From UHGV virus genome UHGV-0202386: a stretch of 15,272 bases of DNA. One strand, written 5' to 3'. This document shows, one piece after another, positions 304 through 15,133 of the stretch (the stretch's first letter is position 1; every line of letters starts with the position of its first letter). Under the pieces are notes generated by a model. It saw only the letters and a program-made list of their open reading frames with translations, was not told the DNA's origin and made no database searches. The position numbers and the translations under genes are program-made. The DNA comes from a virus.

Positions 304-1533
304 GTGAGCAGAGCGCTTAACAAACTGAGCGATACATTGTTAAGAAAACTTTATGGTAAGCCAGCGGAGAAAAATACGTTCTATAGCGATGGCGGTAATC
401 TGAGCGTGAAATATTTAACATCAGGTAAATTGACCTGGTACTTCACCTACAGGGCTGGAACGGGAAGGGATACCACACCGGAACGCCTGAAGCTGGGAAA
501 CTATCCCGATCTGAGCCTTAAAGCAGCCAGGGAAAAAGCCGCAAAGTGTCGTGCATGGCTGGCAGAAGGGAAAAACCCACGTCATGAACTGAACTACACT
601 GTGCAGGAAGCGTTAAAACCCGTAACGGTTGGCGATGCGATCAGTTACTGGCTGGAAACGCACGTAAAGGAAAACCGTGTCGATTATGTATGCCTGAAAA
701 GTCGCCTGAATAATCACGTCATACAGCACATCGGTAACATGCCACTGGATAAATGCGAATTACGTCACTGGCTGGCCTGTTTTGACCGGATACGCAAAAA
801 ATCCCCCGTAACGTCTGGTCACATGATGCAGGCGTGTAAACAGGCGCTTAAGTTCTGCCGTAAACGTCGCTACGCAGTCAGTAACGTTCTGGATGATCTC
901 AACGTGGTGGACGTTGGCAAAAAGCCGGGCATAAGCGAACGCGTGCTTAGTAACAAAGAACTGGGCGAATTATTACAGGCGCTGGATAAAAAAATATTCC
1001 CGCCCTACTACAGCGCACTAATCCGCCTCCTGATTGTGTTTGGTTGCCGAACCGGAGAACTGAGGCTGTCGGAGATCAGGGAGTGGGATTTTAAGGAAAT
1101 GCTCTGGACAGTACCGAAGGAGCACAGCAAAACGAAGGTCGCCATATTCAGGCCAATACCGGAAAGCATTTTACCGTTTGTCACACGGCTGGTGGAGCAG
1201 AACCGACACACAGGGCTATTACTCGGGGAACTGAAACAGGAAGCCAGCGTGTCGCAATACGGCAGATTCACGCACAAAAAATTAAACCATCCGCACTGGT
1301 CACTACACGATATACGGCGCACGTTTACCACGATGCTGAATGATTTAGGCGTGGATCCGCATATTGTCGAACAACTCACCGCTCACCAGATGCCAGGGAT
1401 GCAGCGAGTCTATAACCACTCCCGTTATCTCGATGCGAAACGTAATGCGCTGGACATGTGGACAGAGCGGTTAGAGATACTGGCGGGTACTCACGAAAAC
1501 GTAACCACACTGCCAATAGCCAGAGAAATATAA
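304..1533 (+). CDS. int: Tyrosine recombinase / phage integrase (P4-type, with N-terminal arm-binding DUF4102-like region); GTG start
   Basis: 409-aa ORF. N-terminal pattern YSDGGNLSV..LTSGKLTWYFTYR...LKLGNYPDLSLKAAREKAAKCRAWLAEGKNP is typical of P4-family integrase arm domains. C-terminal catalytic signatures GCRTGELR, HWSLHDIRRTF, VYNHSRYLD. RBS-like GGGGGAG upstream of GTG 304. Sits next to attL. Confidence 0.9.
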   Translation: MSRALNKLSDTLLRKLYGKPAEKNTFYSDGGNLSVKYLTSGKLTWYFTYRAGTGRDTTPERLKLGNYPDLSLKAAREKAAKCRAWLAEGKNPRHELNYTVQEALKPVTVGDAISYWLETHVKENRVDYVCLKSRLNNHVIQHIGNMPLDKCELRHWLACFDRIRKKSPVTSGHMMQACKQALKFCRKRRYAVSNVLDDLNVVDVGKKPGISERVLSNKELGELLQALDKKIFPPYYSALIRLLIVFGCRTGELRLSEIREWDFKEMLWTVPKEHSKTKVAIFRPIPESILPFVTRLVEQNRHTGLLLGELKQEASVSQYGRFTHKKLNHPHWSLHDIRRTFTTMLNDLGVDPHIVEQLTAHQMPGMQRVYNHSRYLDAKRNALDMWTERLEILAGTHENVTTLPIAREI

Positions 1534-1871: not shown

Positions 1872-2075
1872 ATGACGGAGGCAATAGTGTTAAGCGCTGA
1901 TCGCTTTATACGTGAAAAAGAATGTCAGCAACTTACAGGCCTGAGCCGCTCATGTCGGTATCGCCTGGAGAAGACTGGACAATTCCCATCACGGCGTAAA
2001 CTCGGCGGTCGTTCCGTTGGCTGGTCTTTATCCGAAGTTCTGGCATGGAAGGACAGCCGCGAGGCAGTTCACTAA
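1872..2075 (+). CDS. alpA: AlpA-family phage transcriptional regulator / excisionase-like HTH protein
   Basis: Translation RFIREKECQQLTGLSRSCRYRLEKTGQFPSRRKLGGRSVGWSLSEVLAWK matches the AlpA/Phage_AlpA pattern (..GxSRSTIYRL...FP....LG.RSVGW..SEV..W). Alternative in-frame GTG start at 1887 is preceded by GGAGG at 1877-1881. Confidence 0.8.
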   Translation: MTEAIVLSADRFIREKECQQLTGLSRSCRYRLEKTGQFPSRRKLGGRSVGWSLSEVLAWKDSREAVH

Positions 2076-2100: not shown

Positions 2101-2216
2101 CCCATCCACTAACACAGAGATCTAACCATGAATACTGGATATACGCCCGAACAGGGGCGGGGCTTCGTTCGTCCTGGTGAAACTAAAAAGCCATGTTATC
2201 GGGTATTTTCAGGCAT

Positions 2217-2287
2217 AAAAAAAGCGGCCCCGATAAGGAACCGCCTTTCTGAACAATTAACCTGCTGCGAAAAAAATGGATCAGTGC
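2217..2287 (-). ncRNA. Candidate small RNA of about 70 nt: extended -10 promoter to intrinsic terminator, in an ORF-free gap
   Basis: Minus-strand TGaTATAAT (plus 2294-2302) gives a predicted start near 2285-2287. Terminator hairpin at 2224-2248 (AAGGCGG..CCGCUU, about 11 bp with wobbles, 5-nt loop) is followed by U7 (plus A-run 2217-2223). No ORF of 60 aa or more on either strand here except the rejected long + frame. Confidence 0.3.
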
Positions 2288-2293
2288 AGGGGA

Positions 2294-2302
2294 ATTATAT
2301 CA
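2294..2302 (-). promoter_or_regulatory. Extended -10 promoter element TGaTATAAT (minus strand), no convincing -35
   Basis: Reverse complement of plus 2294-2302 reads TGATATAAT. Read directly. Confidence 0.35.
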
Positions 2303-2340
2303 ACCGTGTGGTGAAGCGCCACTATTGCCGGATAACAGGC

Positions 2341-2369
2341 AAAACAAAGGCGACCGCAAAAGGGTCGCC
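2341..2369 (-). terminator. Intrinsic terminator of the leftward RHH operon
   Basis: Perfect 7-bp stem GGCGACC/GGTCGCC (2349-2355 / 2363-2369) with 7-nt loop. On the minus strand it is followed by TTTGTTTTG (plus 2341-2348). Lies 66 nt downstream of the stop of ORF 2436-2609. Confidence 0.55.
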
Positions 2370-2435
2370 AGTGGGAACAAGGGAAAACAAAAGCATCACC
2401 AACAATGCCACATTTGCGGCTGGTGGGCAATGTGA

Positions 2436-2609
2436 TCAGTCAGATTTGGTTCGTTCCAAGGTTTGCAACGAGAGTTTTTTCCTGCGCTCTTTAAGGAATT
2501 TCTCAAGAGCAAACGAACAAGGTGCGAATCTTTCTGATTCATGCTCTATCTTTCTGCGCCGTCTTTTCCGTGTCGGTGATAATGTTTTGGTCAATTCTTT
2601 ATCGGTCAT
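2436..2609 (-). CDS. Hypothetical small basic protein (57 aa), second gene of the leftward operon
   Basis: ORF MTDKELTKTLSPTRKRRRRKIEHESERF..., AGGG 8 nt upstream of ATG 2609. An alternative ATG at 2624 has no RBS. A perfect 7-bp hairpin (2631-2637 / 2651-2657) separates it from the upstream gene. Supported mainly by the downstream terminator; no recognisable family. Confidence 0.35.
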   Translation of the reverse strand: MTDKELTKTLSPTRKRRRRKIEHESERFAPCSFALEKFLKERRKKLSLQTLERTKSD

Positions 2610-2666
2610 TGTGTTGCCCTGCATAGCAATGCGCCGTAATACCTTACACCACGGCGCTGGTGATGG

Positions 2667-2846
2667 TTACTCCTGCTCTTTGGCCTTGCGGCGCTGGCGG
2701 CGTTTGATCTCGCCTTGCATTGACGCAATGATGAATTGTGATGTGCTTTCGCCTGATTCTTTCACTGATTCCATGGCGTTTACTATTTCGTGTGGTACAC
2801 GAGCCTTTAGAGCTTGTGATTTTGCGTTTGTTGTACCCGTTGCCAT
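2667..2846 (-). CDS. Small ribbon-helix-helix (Arc/CopG-like) DNA-binding protein, candidate repressor of the divergent early promoter
   Basis: 59-aa ORF MATGTTNAKSQALKARVPHEIVNAMESVKESGESTSQFIIASMQGEIKRRQRRKAKEQE. By eye: beta strand (KARVP), helix, helix, basic tail. RBS AGAGGA upstream of ATG 2846. Faces a promoter overlapped by direct repeats. Confidence 0.65.
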   Translation of the reverse strand: MATGTTNAKSQALKARVPHEIVNAMESVKESGESTSQFIIASMQGEIKRRQRRKAKEQE

Positions 2847-2907
2847 TTCTATTCCTCTGTTGGATTGGTGGGGGACAGTATACACAGAAAAAGCACAAAT
2901 AAAACCC

Positions 2908-2948
2908 TTGACGTGGGCCACACCTAAAGCATATAGTGGGCCACACCT
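2908..2948 (+). promoter_or_regulatory. Rightward early promoter (-35 TTGACG 2908-2913, 18-bp spacer, -10 TATAGT 2932-2937) overlapped by two 13-bp direct-repeat operators GTGGGCCACACCT
   Basis: Repeat copies at 2913-2925 and 2936-2948 (perfect 13/13, 23-bp spacing), one over the -35/spacer and one over the -10/start. Sits in the divergent region between the RHH gene and the rightward ORF cluster. Confidence 0.5.
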
Positions 2949-2974
2949 TGAGATTGTCAAGGTGCATAAATGCA

Positions 2975-3009
2975 AAGCCCCGCAAGTGTCGTTACCACTC
3001 GCAGGGCTT
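2975..3009. other. Strong stem-loop in the 5' leader of the rightward operon; on the minus strand it reads as hairpin plus UUUGCAUUUAU
   Basis: AAGCCCCGCAAGTG (2975-2988) pairs with CACTCGCAGGGCTT (2996-3009) at 12 of 14 positions, 7-nt loop. No T-run on plus; T-rich tail on minus (plus 2961-2974). Confidence 0.5.
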
Positions 3010-3045
3010 CTAACCACCAACGATAGAAAGTGTATCGAGGTAGCT

Positions 3046-3252
3046 ATGAGAAATTATACCAGACACCCGCAAGGGCGGGACTCGTACAACCTGAATAAAT
3101 ACATCTGGCGTTTTATCGCCCTGAGCACGGCACAACCGCGCGTGATTACCATTGAGGCCACCAGCGAACAGGAAGCGCGTCAGCAATCTCCTGATGGCTG
3201 CGTGATGGTATTCGCTGCCCGTATTCGTCAGGGGGTACGCCATGTGCAATAA
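3046..3252 (+). CDS. Hypothetical protein (68 aa), first gene of the rightward early operon
   Basis: ATG 3046 preceded by GAGGT (3037-3041). Translation MRNYTRHPQGRDSYNLNKYIWRFIALSTAQPRVITIEATSEQEARQQSPDGCVMVFAARIRQGV. A vague resemblance to small Icd/Ash-like satellite proteins is my impression only. Confidence 0.6.
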   Translation: MRNYTRHPQGRDSYNLNKYIWRFIALSTAQPRVITIEATSEQEARQQSPDGCVMVFAARIRQGVRHVQ

Positions 3253-3481
3253 CACCCGTCCGGACGCAGCCGCCGAAGCCATCAAAACGCTGATGCACGC
3301 GCTGATTGATATTTCTGTTATCGCAGACAAGGCGCATAAGCGCGCCACCAGCGAAACAGAATATGCCGGGGCTTTCGTTCCTCACTCACTGGCTGTTATG
3401 CAACTTAGTGCGGATATGGCGCTGAATGAGGCTAAAGCCATCCTGATTGCTGATTGTGAAAATGGGGGGGGTTATGCGTGA
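3242..3481 (+). CDS. Hypothetical protein (79 aa)
   Basis: ATG 3242 overlaps the upstream stop; AGGGGG 9 nt upstream. No recognisable family. Confidence 0.55.
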   Translation: MCNNTRPDAAAEAIKTLMHALIDISVIADKAHKRATSETEYAGAFVPHSLAVMQLSADMALNEAKAILIADCENGGGYA

Positions 3482-3707
3482 TGATCGTTTTAATTCCCTG
3501 AAACAGGAATTTTCCGGCGTTCCTGATGATGCGGCTGATGCGCTTTCGTCAATGCCAGAGCTTATTAGAGCGGCTTTTTTCTTACTTTCCACGAGAGAAT
3601 ATAAATCAACGGGGCTTGATGTACTGAATATCGCCGCCGATTATGCGGAATATGTGGCAGAGGCGCGTTATAGAAGAAAATTTCCTGAGGATGTAAGCCA
3701 TGCGTGA
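3474..3707 (+). CDS. Hypothetical protein (77 aa from ATG 3474; alternative ATG 3462)
   Basis: G-rich RBS GGGGGGG upstream. Overlaps neighbours in the coupled ATGA/TGA style. Acidic protein, unknown. Confidence 0.5.
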   Translation: MRDDRFNSLKQEFSGVPDDAADALSSMPELIRAAFFLLSTREYKSTGLDVLNIAADYAEYVAEARYRRKFPEDVSHA

Positions 3708-3933
3708 TATTTACCACGAAACAATAGACCGCGCATTTCTTGCACTTTCTCACAGTGAAAACATGCTGGGAATATTGCGCATATGGCTTGAAACACTTGG
3801 CGACAATGAACGCGACAAACAAAAATCAAGAATTGCCACGGCATTAATAACGCTTCTTGAGCCTGTAATAATGGAACTGCAAGAAATAGATCTATTGCAC
3901 GACAGATATAAAGAACAGCACACCGGAGAATAA
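3700..3933 (+). CDS. Hypothetical protein (77 aa)
   Basis: ATG 3700 overlaps the upstream stop; GAGGA at 3686-3690. Unknown family. Confidence 0.5.
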   Translation: MRDIYHETIDRAFLALSHSENMLGILRIWLETLGDNERDKQKSRIATALITLLEPVIMELQEIDLLHDRYKEQHTGE

Positions 3934-3938
3934 AAATA

Positions 3939-4238
3939 ATGAAACTTAAATATTCTGGCTTAACTGCCAGTGGCAACACTCACCCTAAATTTACGCGCGG
4001 CGATATTTACCGCGACCAGTACGGCGGCACGGTAATGATTAAGGGCGTGGAAGAACGGCGCGTAACCTACCGCCGTGAAGGTTACGAATATGATTGCGTG
4101 ATGCCTGTTTATCAGTTCCGGCGTGATTTTTCTCTGGTACAGACCGCGCCGCATAACGTGTCCACCAGCAACGCCAGGGCACGGGCAAACATCCAGAAGC
4201 TGAAAACCATGATTAACGGATTCAGGGGTAAAAAATGA
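3939..4238 (+). CDS. Hypothetical protein (99 aa), possibly DUF4222-like
   Basis: Motif YRDQYGGTVMIKGVEERRVTYRREGYEYDCVMPVYQFRRDF reminds me of DUF4222 proteins of enterobacterial prophages (memory only). Stop overlaps the primase start. Confidence 0.5.
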   Translation: MKLKYSGLTASGNTHPKFTRGDIYRDQYGGTVMIKGVEERRVTYRREGYEYDCVMPVYQFRRDFSLVQTAPHNVSTSNARARANIQKLKTMINGFRGKK

Positions 4239-6049
4239 AACTGGCACCGAACGTAAAACAGCAGTCACGCGGCATAAAACACAAAGAAACAGAAGTCATT
4301 ATTTTTGCGGGTAGTGATGCCTGGTCACACGCAAAACAATGGCAGGAACATGACGCGCGTATGGCCGGAGATAATGAGCCTCCTGTGTGGCTTGGGGAGC
4401 AGCAGTTATCCGAACTGGATAAGCTGCAAATTGTGCCGGAAGGCAGAAAATCCGTGCGCATATTCAGGGCCGGATATCTTGCGCCAGTAATGATAAAGGC
4501 GATTGGTCAGAAGCTGGCGGCGGCAGGCGTACAGGATGCAAATTTTTATCCTGAGGGTATGCACGGTCAGGAGGTGCAGAACTGGCGCGAATATCTGGCC
4601 CGTGAGCGCCAGAATCTTTCTGATGGTCTGGTGATTCAGCTTCCTGTTAAGAAAAAAACAGAAGACAGCGCCGCACCACTGGCGCTTAACCAGATGGGAG
4701 CAAGCCAGCGCGGCGAAGTTCTCCTGGCACATTATGGCGGTGAACTGGCGATTCATGCCGACTCTGACACTGTTCACCATTACAACGGCGTTGTATGGGA
4801 GCCGATTCAGGATAAAGAGTTACAGCGTGCTATGGCGCAGATTTTCATTGATGCGGAGATCAGCTATTCGCAGAACGCCATTAAATCGGCGGTCGATACC
4901 ATGAAGTTAAGTTTGCCTGTAATGGGGAATACAGCCCGTAACCTGATTGGATTCAGTAACGGGGTATTTGATACCAGAACAGGTAATTTTCGGGAGCATA
5001 ACAAAAACGACTGGTTGTTAATTGCCAGTGAATTACCTTTCAGCCCACCAGCAGAGGGGGAAACGCTGGCAACACATGCGCCGAATTTCTGGAAGTGGTT
5101 ACGCTGCTCGGTGGCAGAGAATGACCGCAAGACGGATCGCGTGCTGGCTGCATTATTCATGGTGCTGGCGAACCGGTACGACTGGCAGTTATTCATTGAG
5201 GTAACAGGTCCAGGGGGAAGTGGTAAAAGCGTGATGGCGGAGATTTGCACTATGCTGGCGGGTAAGGCCAACACAGTATCGGCAAGCATGAAGGCGCTGG
5301 AAGATGCAAGGGAACGCGCGTTAGTGGTTGGCTTTTCGCTGATTATCATGCCGGATATGACCCGCTACGCTGGTGATGGCGCAGGAATTAAGGCCATTAC
5401 AGGCGGTGACAAGGTGGCAATCGACCCGAAGCATAAAGCCCCCTACTCAACACGCATTCAGGCGGTCGTGCTGGCGGTGAACAATAACGCCATGTCATTC
5501 AGTGACCGCAGCGGGGGGATCTCACGTCGTCGGGTGATATTCAATTTTTCGGAGGTTGTACCGGAGAACGAGCGCGACCCCATGCTGGCAGAAAAAATAG
5601 AAGGAGAGCTGGCGGTTGTGATTCGCCATCTGCTTACTCGTTTTTCTGACCAGGACGAAGCTAAACGCCTGCTGTATGAGCAGCAGAAATCAGAAGAAGC
5701 TCTGGTGATAAAACGCGAGGGCGATTCGCTGGTGGACTTCTGTGGCTATCTCATGTCGTCGGTAATGTGTGATGGTCTGTTAGTGGGTAATGCCGAAATT
5801 ATTCCGTTCAGTCCGCGCAGGTATCTTTATCACGCCTATCTGGCATATATGAGGGCACACGGATTCGGTAAACCTGTAACACTGACGCGCTTCGGTAAAG
5901 ATATGCCGGGGGCAATGGCGGAATATGGCAGGGAGTATATAAAACGGAAAACGAAGCACGGTTTGCGTTCAAATGTGACACTGACAGAGGATTCAGAAGA
6001 CTGGATGCCATCATGTGCATCGGTCACAAATGACGACAGCAAAAATTAA
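4235..6049 (+). CDS. Replication initiator: P4-alpha-like primase / SF3 helicase (Walker A GPGGSGKS)
   Basis: 604-aa ORF. Walker A in VTGPGGSGKSVMAE, Walker B-like LIIMPDM, sensor AVVLAVNNN. Followed directly by TGTTCACC iterons, as for P4 alpha and its ori. Confidence 0.8.
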   Translation: MKLAPNVKQQSRGIKHKETEVIIFAGSDAWSHAKQWQEHDARMAGDNEPPVWLGEQQLSELDKLQIVPEGRKSVRIFRAGYLAPVMIKAIGQKLAAAGVQDANFYPEGMHGQEVQNWREYLARERQNLSDGLVIQLPVKKKTEDSAAPLALNQMGASQRGEVLLAHYGGELAIHADSDTVHHYNGVVWEPIQDKELQRAMAQIFIDAEISYSQNAIKSAVDTMKLSLPVMGNTARNLIGFSNGVFDTRTGNFREHNKNDWLLIASELPFSPPAEGETLATHAPNFWKWLRCSVAENDRKTDRVLAALFMVLANRYDWQLFIEVTGPGGSGKSVMAEICTMLAGKANTVSASMKALEDARERALVVGFSLIIMPDMTRYAGDGAGIKAITGGDKVAIDPKHKAPYSTRIQAVVLAVNNNAMSFSDRSGGISRRRVIFNFSEVVPENERDPMLAEKIEGELAVVIRHLLTRFSDQDEAKRLLYEQQKSEEALVIKREGDSLVDFCGYLMSSVMCDGLLVGNAEIIPFSPRRYLYHAYLAYMRAHGFGKPVTLTRFGKDMPGAMAEYGREYIKRKTKHGLRSNVTLTEDSEDWMPSCASVTNDDSKN

Positions 6050-6062
6050 ACTTATGGAATAA

Positions 6063-6293
6063 CTGTTCACCACTGTTCACCCTGTTATAAATATCTTTTA
6101 TATCAGTACATTATAGGGTGAACAGTTATTTGTGAACTGTTCACCAAACTATTCACTGTTCACCTTTTTGATTATTTATTGAGCTTTAAGGGTGAACAGT
6201 GGTGAACAGTTGGTGAATAGTTTTTGTGAAACTGTTCACCCCTTAACGTTATGAATAAAAAGGGAAAATCTCAAAAGGTGAACAGGTGAAGGG
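6063..6293. repeat. Origin of replication: about 11 copies of the 9-mer CTGTTCACC (P4 type-I iteron TGTTCACC) in both orientations
   Basis: Plus-orientation copies at 6063, 6073, 6137, 6156, 6232; reverse-orientation GGTGAACAG at 6117, 6191, 6201, 6277, with variants at 6212 and 6285. AT-rich spacers. Lies immediately downstream of the primase. Confidence 0.8.
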
Positions 6294-6336
6294 TTAAAAT
6301 GCAAAAATTTTATTTTATTGCTGTGAGGTAAAGCCT

Positions 6337-6582
6337 GTGACAACGCAGCACGCAAAAAAACCACAATCTCACGCCCTTGATTTGACAGAACACTGGCTGA
6401 GGGTGGCGATAAAAATCATCGACCGCAACGCGGGAGAAGGGTACGCAAAAGCACATCCCGAACTGGTAAGCGCATTCATGACCACGGCAGCGGCAAACTT
6501 TGCCACACTGACAGAACGGGAGATTGCCGAAGCGGAACAGGTGACAACCATCAACGTTAAAACCGGAGAGCAGACAGCATGA
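6337..6582 (+). CDS. Hypothetical protein (81 aa), GTG start
   Basis: GAGG at 6325-6328, 8 nt before GTG 6337. Stop overlaps the ssb start (ATGA). Unknown family. Confidence 0.5.
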   Translation: MTTQHAKKPQSHALDLTEHWLRVAIKIIDRNAGEGYAKAHPELVSAFMTTAAANFATLTEREIAEAEQVTTINVKTGEQTA

Positions 6583-7004
6583 CAGCACAGATAGCGGCTT
6601 ACGGGCGGCTGGTGGCTGACCCGCAGTTAAAGACCACCAGCAAAGGGACACAAATGGCGATGGCGAGTATGGCGGTTCCCCTGCCGTGCAGCCAGGCAGA
6701 TGACGGAACGGCGACGATGTGGTTATCTGTCCTGGCGTTTGGCAGACAGGCCGACGCACTGGCAAAACACCACAAAGGCGAACTGGTGAGCGTGGCGGGT
6801 AACATGCAGGTGAGCCAGTGGACAGGCCAGAACGGGGAAACGCGGCAGGGCTGGCAGGTTATTGCAGACAGCGTAATCAGTGCGCGAACGGCGCGACCGG
6901 GCGGCAAAAAAGGTCAACAGGGCCAGGCCACTGACGCACTGAACAGGGCAAAACAACAGACAAGCCAGCACGATGACCCGTACGGGGATAACATACCGTT
7001 TTAA
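6579..7004 (+). CDS. ssb: Single-stranded DNA-binding protein (short SSB with conserved C-terminal ..D-N-IPF tip)
   Basis: OB-fold pattern (W..V.AFG..A..L.K...KG..V.V.G......W....G..R) and C-terminus DDPYGDNIPF resembling the SSB acidic tip DDDIPF. GGAGAG RBS. Confidence 0.8.
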   Translation: MTAQIAAYGRLVADPQLKTTSKGTQMAMASMAVPLPCSQADDGTATMWLSVLAFGRQADALAKHHKGELVSVAGNMQVSQWTGQNGETRQGWQVIADSVISARTARPGGKKGQQGQATDALNRAKQQTSQHDDPYGDNIPF

Positions 7005-7040: not shown

Positions 7041-7571
7041 ATGACAACGCTGACCATTAACCGGAAGCCGAAAGGCATTTACGGCACGCCGCAGAAAACG
7101 ACGCAGGCGGCGCAAGAGCAGGATAAAACCACATCGGTGCATAAAGTGATACCCGGCAATCAGAACGCACAGCAGAAGCCCACAGGGGCGACACCGTGGC
7201 AGCATATGACCAAAAGGCAGCGCAAAAACCGCCGACGCGTTAACCGCCTCACTGAGATGTGGCCTGACTTATTCAGCCATAAAGCACCGAAGCCGCTTAA
7301 GGTGGGGATATTCGACGACCTGATGCAGGATATCGCCGTCAGGGGGCTGGCATTCGGGTCGGGGGTATTACGTGCGACGCTGGCATCCTATGCGCAGTCT
7401 CCGCGCTATTACCGCGCCCTGATAGCTGGTGGCGCACGTTACGACCTGAAGGGCCAGCCATGTGGGGAAGTGACACCACAGGAACAGCAGGAGGCAGAAA
7501 CACGGCTGATGGTGCTGAATGAGAAGCACAAGCGCCAGCGCCGGGCAGCAAAGGGGGATACATGCCAGTGA
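7041..7571 (+). CDS. ProQ/FinO-domain RNA-binding protein (FinO-like RNA chaperone)
   Basis: PKPLKVGIFDDLMQDIAVRG...LRATLASYAQSPRYYRALIAGGARYDLKGQPCGEVTPQEQQEA aligns by eye to the ProQ/FinO core (PLKIGIFQDL...[35 protein letters not shown]). Lys/Gln-rich N-terminal extension. RBS AGGGGAAGG. Confidence 0.8.
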   Translation: MTTLTINRKPKGIYGTPQKTTQAAQEQDKTTSVHKVIPGNQNAQQKPTGATPWQHMTKRQRKNRRRVNRLTEMWPDLFSHKAPKPLKVGIFDDLMQDIAVRGLAFGSGVLRATLASYAQSPRYYRALIAGGARYDLKGQPCGEVTPQEQQEAETRLMVLNEKHKRQRRAAKGDTCQ

Positions 7572-14676: not shown

Positions 14677-14752
14677 GCTTTGGCTAATATTCAAACGCAT
14701 CATTTTTTAACCCATTGATATTAAATAATAAAAAACACTTAGCAAGCGAAGA

Positions 14753-14799: not shown

Positions 14800-15000
14800 G
14801 AAAAATTGCATTCAGGAGGTGGGATCGAAATCCCTACAACCCATTGCTTATGGGACTGCCCGCCCCGTCAAATTTTTACACCCGCGAAAAATACTTCAAG
14901 CTGGTGGGCATGATGCCGATATGGGGATCCCCATGTCGACATTAACGCCCCTCATGAATTGGCGTGCTTCCCCCTGGAAAGATGACCCGCCTGTATATTT

Positions 15001-15066
15001 CTTGTGTCTATTTGTTCCACGTTGTTTCATACAGTGCACCGAACGGTGTAGTTACTGGTGTAGTCA
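15001..15066 (+). repeat. Right-arm copy of the terminal repeat: 3 phased TTGT motifs, TTGTTCCACGTTGT, and tandem GGTGTAGTTA/GGTGTAGTCA
   Basis: TTGT at 15002, 15012, 15022. TTGTTCCACGTTGT 15013-15026 is identical to 214-227. GGTGTAGTTACTGGTGTAGTCAT 15045-15067 versus left GGTGTAGTCACTGGTGTAGTCAT 246-268. Confidence 0.6.
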
Positions 15067-15133
15067 TTTTGCGATTTTTAAAGTTATCTAAGATATTATT
15101 TGTCATTTAAATTCAATTGGTTATGAGTACTTG

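Follow-up and report, generated by a model that had tools for sequence, protein, structure and literature searches.

A P4 alpha-like initiator helicase and its iteron origin as the probable replicon of a capsid-forming satellite of Escherichia coli

Which gene and which site allow a phage satellite to copy its own DNA, and does the protein that is called its primase make the primers? Both questions are raised by positions 4235–6293 of the viral genome UHGV-0202386, a stretch of 15,272 nucleotides that was analysed as a whole and is referred to here as the window. An initial annotation, made from the sequence alone, described this segment as a primase/helicase gene resembling alpha of phage P4, with an iteron origin directly downstream that gives the element autonomous replication. 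Its gene set identifies the window as a complete cf-PICI (capsid-forming phage-inducible chromosomal island) of Escherichia coli, that is, a satellite that builds its own small capsids and takes only the tails from its helper phage (10.1101/2022.09.08.507074). It comprises the entire mobile island, and profile scans detected no tail genes among its open reading frames (ORFs). We consider it highly probable that positions 4235–6293 form the replicon of this cf-PICI, composed of an origin-binding, self-loading superfamily 3 (SF3) helicase of the P4 alpha/PICI 'Pri-Rep' kind and an iteron origin, and that the primers are most likely made by the host.

A P4 alpha-like helicase with a different N terminus

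The initiator ORF is intact, and because its ATG is the first start codon past an in-frame stop, a longer N terminus is impossible. Pfam places D5_N at residues 161–290, DUF5906 (the SF3 ATPase) at residues 324–432 and Pox_D5 at residues 495–590, so that D5_N, the SF3 helicase and a C-terminal winged-helix domain are shared with P4 alpha. BLASTP aligned residues 137–599 with residues 313–776 of P4 alpha at 49% identity over 463 residues, Walker A and the other helicase motifs being conserved, and the solved origin-binding domain of P4 alpha (PDB 1KA8) matched residues 496–592 (E = 3.3e-24). The ATPase core also matched PDB 7OLA (E = 2.8e-10), which represents the Rep/PriRep1 proteins of the Staphylococcus aureus pathogenicity islands (SaPIs; PMC9371898). 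These are likewise SF3-type, self-loading initiator helicases of phage satellites with the origin 3′ of the gene, whereas their sequence is distant and their iterons are unrelated. By these alignments, the helicase core and the origin-binding domain are P4 alpha-like, and this half of the earlier description stands.

The primase half is not supported. When the domain boundaries were compared with those of P4 alpha, as had been proposed, residues 1–136 were left without a counterpart. The protein had been described as shorter than alpha, and it is: 604 against 777 residues, a difference of 173 that corresponds roughly to the loss of alpha's first ~176 residues. In P4 alpha, the primase part contains a zinc ribbon (Zn_Ribbon_Prim, PF08273, residues 30–66) and Toprim_3 (residues 210–299). 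Neither BLASTP nor Pfam found a counterpart of the zinc ribbon or Toprim in the initiator, which instead begins with a 136-residue domain that is absent from alpha (hereafter the N-domain).

Replication from a module of this kind has been studied in a sister allele, that of the PICI EcCICFT073. With a rep–ori fragment of this island, a thermosensitive plasmid persists in DH5alpha at the restrictive temperature, a Δrep plasmid yields no colonies, and ori-site mutants were built and compared statistically in a figure legend (Fillol-Salom et al. 2018, PMC6092414). The replication test in a suicide vector that had been suggested for the window has thus essentially been done for the sister allele. 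In the same study, the origins of Gram-negative PICIs are described as an A+T-rich stretch between two sets of iterons, placed directly after the 3′ end of rep. The window shows the same arrangement, immediately 3′ of a rep gene that lies inside the PICI, downstream of int and alpA and in the same orientation. Autonomous replication from an origin 3′ of the initiator would fit this published replicon.

Primase activity of the N-domain is unlikely

The 'primase' label can be traced to TIGR01613, which covers only residues 238–543 and scores 96 bits, below its own cut-off of 108.7; proteins of this family, widely annotated as 'DNA primase family protein', are probably misnamed. For the N-terminal part itself, no Pfam family matched residues 1–160 at E ≤ 10 and no NCBIfam model matched residues 1–140 at E ≤ 1. 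A zinc ribbon is not apparent, as the initiator lacks a Cys/His cluster and the N-domain family lacks conserved Cys or His columns. Among 23 homologues of the N-domain, none matched a Toprim family of Pfam at E ≤ 10, and Foldseek found nothing significant for the N-domain in the PDB (best E = 0.078). Alignment of the N-domain family with the Toprim region of P4 alpha by hhalign was not significant either, with E = 0.65 for a single sequence and E = 0.33 for a 12-sequence alignment, so that a direct sequence link between the N-domain and Toprim is not established. The Prokaryotic Genome Annotation Pipeline (PGAP) lists no other primase gene in an island copy of 99% identity, and none was found among the scanned ORFs of the window.

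Indirect comparisons nevertheless point towards Toprim. An AlphaFold2 model of the N-domain built from a 34-sequence alignment (pLDDT 87.8, pTM 0.82) shows alternating beta and alpha elements with four main strands, and in a viral structure library DnaG-Toprim proteins rank second, fifth and eighth among its matches (E 0.02–0.12). In addition, the profile phrog_1139 ('DNA primase') matches residues 43–126 (E = 1.2e-4) through its segment 169–278, and the Toprim region of P4 alpha matches segment 156–278, the same stretch of the profile. These results lend moderate support to the modelled N-domain being a strongly diverged Toprim-like fold.

The residues that would make such a fold catalytic are a different matter. 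Nine positions are invariant in the N-domain family, and remain so down to ~30% identity: E20, I23, A25, G26, A29, P50, L53, L58 and G80. E20 is the only acidic residue among them; D46 and position 115 are mostly acidic in the family, with Gln at position 115 in the window protein. In Toprim enzymes, the catalytic Glu precedes a Gly at the end of strand 1. In the register that we infer from the model, this Glu position would be taken by the invariant Ala25 before Gly26, and the DxD position after strand 3 by A-G-x-I/L. The Toprim/DnaG ligands, the Glu of EGYATA and DxD, are not seen as conserved acidic residues in the family. From its sequence, the N-domain is most likely at most a catalytically dead Toprim remnant, and primase activity of the 604-residue protein appears unlikely because both a zinc-binding module and the acidic triad are missing. 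Metazoan Twinkle offers a parallel, having retained a DnaG/T7-like primase domain and lost the zinc finger and the catalytic residues. Unlike the initiator, Twinkle is of the DnaB/T7 gp4 type (superfamily 4) and has no origin-binding domain; the likeness is an analogy for domain decay and not one of close kinship.

Among 1.84 billion representative proteins searched, only 79 clusters contain the N-domain. In each of the nine full-length carriers that were scanned with Pfam, it begins no later than residue eight, and the helicase or NTPase families behind it in these nine are four: D5_N/DUF5906/Pox_D5, DUF927, AAA_25 and VapE-like.

Some of these observations would also suit a true bifunctional primase-helicase, as the annotation and the initial reading have it, with the N-domain as a compact, highly diverged and active primase. 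The domain stands where P4 alpha and its kin have their primase, it occurs in front of four helicase families, and both its best fold matches and phrog_1139 lead to DnaG-type or annotated primases. E20 is invariant, D46 and position 115 are mostly acidic in the family, and EcCICFT073 pri-rep plus ori replicates without other island genes (PMC6092414). However, such an enzyme would have to work without a zinc-binding domain or Cys/His cluster and without a Toprim signature that Pfam, NCBIfam or hhalign can detect. It would also carry Ala where the Toprim Glu is expected, AG-x-I/L in place of DxD (both in the inferred register) and, in the window protein, Gln at position 115; its name, moreover, derives from a sub-threshold match outside the N-domain. 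We therefore regard an active primase as unlikely, and retain the reading of an initiator helicase that depends on host primers.

The predicted origin carries P4 iterons, the first half in the layout of P4 ori

A non-coding stretch of 287 bp separates the initiator from the next gene (GTG at 6337), and the G+C content drops from ~0.5 to 0.28–0.37 over positions 6020–6350. The window contains 11 exact copies of TGTTCACC against 0.56 expected, a count that none of 200 shuffles reached. Nine of the 11 lie in 6064–6284, and all nine carry an extra 5′ C, which makes them CTGTTCACC. Two degenerate copies complete the set, CTATTCACC with one mismatch (6212–6220, minus strand) and CTATTCACT with two (6147–6155, plus strand), giving six forward and five reverse iterons across 6063–6285, right after the initiator ORF. 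The spacers between them are 72–81% A+T, compared with 49% in the initiator gene. About 11 iterons in both orientations with AT-rich spacers, directly downstream of the gene, had been described, and each of these points was borne out. Elsewhere in the 15-kb island there is no second cluster. The two other exact copies of TGTTCACC are isolated within the initiator coding sequence (4771–4778, plus strand; 5476–5483, minus strand) and could be chance occurrences or weak autoregulatory sites. DnaA boxes were not found in the origin. This origin type is present in 671/5426 complete E. coli genomes, and in four relatives that differ by up to ~23% in this region, invariant columns make up 80% of the iterons and 45% of the spacers (Fisher p = 1.6e-7).

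The repeat had been likened to the type-I iteron bound by P4 alpha, and the match is exact: TGTTCACC is identical to the 'ori type 1 repeat' that the GenBank record of P4 (NC_001609) annotates in ori as well as in crr. The P4 genome has no exact copy outside these two regions, which together hold 11. As in the island, an iteron block lies directly 3′ of alpha. The likeness extends to the core of P4 ori, whose repeats are arranged like the first six in the island with respect to order, orientation and spacing. From start to start, the steps measure 10, 43, 21 and 19 in the island, the last spanning a degenerate copy, and 10, 43, 22, 11 and 10 in P4 ori. It lies in the iteron layout only, because spacer 1 resembles the P4 ori spacer no better than its composition predicts (1021/2000 shuffles reach the score). 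P4 differs in further respects. Its ori and crr, both of which are needed in cis, are 4.5 kb apart, whereas the island has one contiguous region; the spacer sequences are unrelated; cnr lies upstream of alpha and a DUF4222 gene upstream of the initiator; and the host element is a P4-like satellite in one case and a cf-PICI in the other.

The iterons immediately 3′ of alpha in P4 are those of crr, with ori 4.5 kb off. The block in the island might by analogy be a crr-like cis-acting enhancer or a copy-control (handcuffing or autoregulatory) region, with replication starting elsewhere. Its second half (6189–6285) does loosely resemble a crr unit, and spacer 3 is marginally similar to two crr spacers (39 and 60 of 2000 shuffles). 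By contrast, the first half reproduces the layout of P4 ori and not that of crr, the island offers no other iteron cluster from which replication could start, and the EcCICFT073 rep–ori fragment, with the same layout, sufficed for plasmid maintenance in the study in which its ori-site mutants were compared (PMC6092414). A purely regulatory role of the block is improbable on this evidence, and we treat 6050–6293 as the predicted origin.

Spacer 1, the candidate melting site, contains an element of ~25 nt (AAATA.C.TTTA..TCAGTACATTA, 6088–6113) that is conserved in EcCICFT073 (L006 9039–9063). Similarity between the two spacers was matched by 0/2000 shuffles, although the iterons and initiator genes are otherwise unalignable. 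The element may mark a melting or priming site, or a site for a host factor. A pattern resembling the binding site of integration host factor (IHF), WATCARNNNNTTR, has three matches in the window, at 6101–6113 within the origin and at 1640–1652 and 14708–14720, the latter two near the island ends. With 1.2 matches expected and three or more in 24/200 shuffles, the use of IHF in both replication and integration is suggestive but statistically weak. A consensus scan for promoters and terminators over 3800–6700 returned nothing that exceeded shuffles.

Helicase, binding domain and origin are exchanged as one cassette

EcCICFT073 shares with the window the gene order DUF4222, pri-rep, non-coding ori, small ORF and SSB, as well as the Pfam architecture, the iteron layout and the conserved element in spacer 1. 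It differs in being a classical PICI, not a capsid-forming one, and in its iteron, which is TGTCTACC and not TGTTCACC. Its Pri-Rep is 55% identical to the initiator over the full length, with 97% identity in the N-domain, 46% in the helicase and 34.4% in the binding domain. The same break is visible in the DNA. By blastn, positions 3420–4656 are 93.6% and positions 6372–6907 are 82.8% identical to EcCICFT073, whereas alignment within 4657–6371 is confined to two patches of 72 and 82 nt with 72–78% identity. From this pattern, it follows that helicase core, binding domain and origin have been exchanged as one block, with the upstream break in the linker that follows the N-domain. In the binding domain, identity is higher with P4 alpha, which has the same iteron (48.5%), than with EcCICFT073, which has another. 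Such co-variation is the strongest in-silico argument for recognition of the repeats by the C-terminal domain.

Other islands carry further combinations. A third allele joins the N-domain to an AAA_25 (RepA/DnaB-like) helicase (L008 4400–4890; GCA_040616045.1, contig ABTKXU010000011.1). Downstream of this helicase gene, eight or more AAGTGAGG repeats in both orientations lie in an A+T-rich region of 480 bp, presumably the origin of that island. A PICI of an O157:H7 strain carries the TGTTCACC cassette on a different backbone (L007, NZ_CP076237.1 1808862–1823161). It sits inside the large-terminase gene of a prophage, which is thereby split into two pseudogene halves. We considered whether this match (H49) was EcCIEDL933 and rejected the assignment: it is another PICI, located in a prophage terminase gene, with the same cassette. 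Because the N-domain stays unchanged while helicase type and origin vary, it may contact something equally constant, for instance a component of the host replisome.

The 173 missing residues and the absent catalytic primase motifs could suggest decay, with the module as what is left of an alpha gene of P4 type that has lost its primase and is dead for replication. This is very improbable given the intact ORF with conserved Walker A and helicase motifs, an origin type found in 671/5426 genomes with conserved iterons, an N-domain family that keeps its invariant residues down to ~30% identity, and a functional EcCICFT073 protein with a 97%-identical N-domain.

Gene surroundings of the replicon

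The features of the replicon and its neighbours are listed in Table 1. Between the alpA-type gene and the initiator lie small ORFs and then the DUF4222 gene. After the initiator follow, in order, genes for SSB, a ProQ/FinO protein, an HK97-type capsid protein, protease, portal, connector, an HNH endonuclease, TerS and TerL. In an E. coli chromosome, the 99%-identical island lies within yifB/comM and is annotated alike.

The DUF4222 gene is translationally coupled to the initiator through the ATGA overlap. The pairing of DUF4222 with an initiator also occurs in EcCICFT073, the O157:H7 PICI and the AAA_25-type island, irrespective of the helicase family. P4 encodes its copy-number regulator, Cnr, directly before alpha; we examined the DUF4222 protein as a possible Cnr homologue and rejected this, as there was no alignment between the two. 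The SSB of the island keeps the canonical C-terminal ...NIPF tip and is a probable accessory replication factor; in E. coli SSB, the C-terminal tip is the docking site of replisome proteins.

A long ORF at 2128–3252 (plus strand, 374 residues) was considered as a separate primase gene and rejected. Its only family match, to an Icd-like cell-division inhibitor (phrog_6196), falls in the final ~80 residues, and at the corresponding place in the 99%-identical genome PGAP has a short icd-like gene and two small minus-strand genes of the YlcI/YnfO family. The long ORF is probably artefactual and stems from an open upstream frame. An imperfect direct repeat of 76 nt (78% identical; 196–271 and 14995–15070) lies just within both ends of the island. 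It holds internal tandem motifs (CTTGTTCCA... and two copies of GGTGTAGTCA), and the repeats are probably arm-type binding sites of the integrase.

Table 1 Features of the replicon and of its surroundings in the window
Feature	Position	Strand	Remarks
Tyrosine integrase	304–1533		
AlpA-type regulator	1872–2075		
DUF4222 gene	3939–4238	+	Stop overlaps initiator start (ATGA); membership of the replication module uncertain
Replication initiator ('pri-rep' of PICIs)	4235–6049	+	ATG start, 604 residues
N-terminal domain, residues 1–136	4235–4642	+	Replaces the primase part of P4 alpha
Specificity cassette (helicase core, binding domain, origin)	4657–6371		Delimited by blastn against EcCICFT073
Walker A GPGGSGKS, residues 325–332 of the SF3 ATPase	5207–5230	+	Identical to P4 alpha residues 501–508 (BLASTP)
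Winged-helix origin-binding domain, residues 495–592	5717–6010	+	PDB 1KA8
Replication origin (predicted)	6050–6293		66% A+T overall; 11 iterons in both orientations, three A+T-rich spacers
Direct iteron pair	6064–6081	+	TGTTCACC at 6064 and 6074, 10-bp phase; same pair and spacing in P4 ori and EcCICFT073 ori
Spacer 1	6082–6116		35 bp, 80% A+T; candidate melting site; contains TCAGTACATTA and IHF-like match 6101–6113
Iterons	6117–6164		Inverted 6117–6124; direct 6138–6145, 6148–6155 (degenerate) and 6157–6164
Spacer 2	6165–6190		81% A+T
Second iteron set	6191–6284		Inverted 6191, 6201 and 6212 (degenerate); direct 6233–6240; inverted 6277–6284
Spacer 3	6241–6276		36 bp, 72% A+T
Island SSB	6579–7004	+	Pfam SSB, E = 4e-16; C terminus ...DDPYGDNIPF
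ProQ/FinO-family RNA chaperone gene	7041–7571		Follows SSB

Discussion

In the mechanism that we propose, induction by a helper phage would switch on the rightward operon, and the winged-helix domain of the 604-residue protein would, as its homology predicts, bind the TGTTCACC iteron sets. Initiator hexamers would assemble on these sets and melt the spacers, which at ~80% A+T are the presumed melting site. The helicase would then unwind the excised island circle, and host polymerase would copy it. Primers would come from the host, either from DnaG, possibly recruited via the island SSB or the N-domain, or through loading by the restart primosome. Host primers are the most likely source because the zinc ribbon is absent and the N-domain is at most a dead Toprim remnant.

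The kind of element and the layout of its replicon, Pri-rep followed by an iteron origin, are already published, and the origin type is common in E. coli. A full-text literature search for TGTTCACC returned primer sequences only, and neither the cf-PICI founding preprint (10.1101/2022.09.08.507074) nor the EcCIMP1 paper mentions a primase, a helicase or iterons. Four points were not found in the literature examined: that the iteron is exactly that of P4 and its layout similar, that a primase seems to be absent despite the universal 'primase' label, that four helicase families share the N-domain, and where precisely the cassette begins and ends. We regard these as modest refinements.

More speculatively, the N-domain could be a hitherto undescribed, non-catalytic descendant of a Toprim primase domain that serves as a universal adaptor in enterobacterial and Pasteurellaceae satellites. 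For initiator helicases of four or more unrelated families (P4 alpha/D5-like, DUF927, AAA_25 and VapE-like), it would recruit host primase, the replisome or some other constant partner. Separately, each of the two initiators, P4 alpha and that of the cf-PICI, could start replication from the other's origin or compete for it, which is conceivable because the exact iteron is shared and the binding domains are 48.5% identical. Both ideas are tentative. The second would amount to cross-talk at the level of replication between two different satellite families, and the shared P4 iteron predicts that P4-like satellites and cf-PICIs interfere with or cross-activate each other in one cell.

For the island itself, the module explains how it could amplify itself after induction by a helper phage. 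If the primase annotation is wrong, who primes PICI replication becomes the question. The cassette behind a constant N-domain would, in turn, provide a clean natural system for studying the co-evolution of initiators and their origins.

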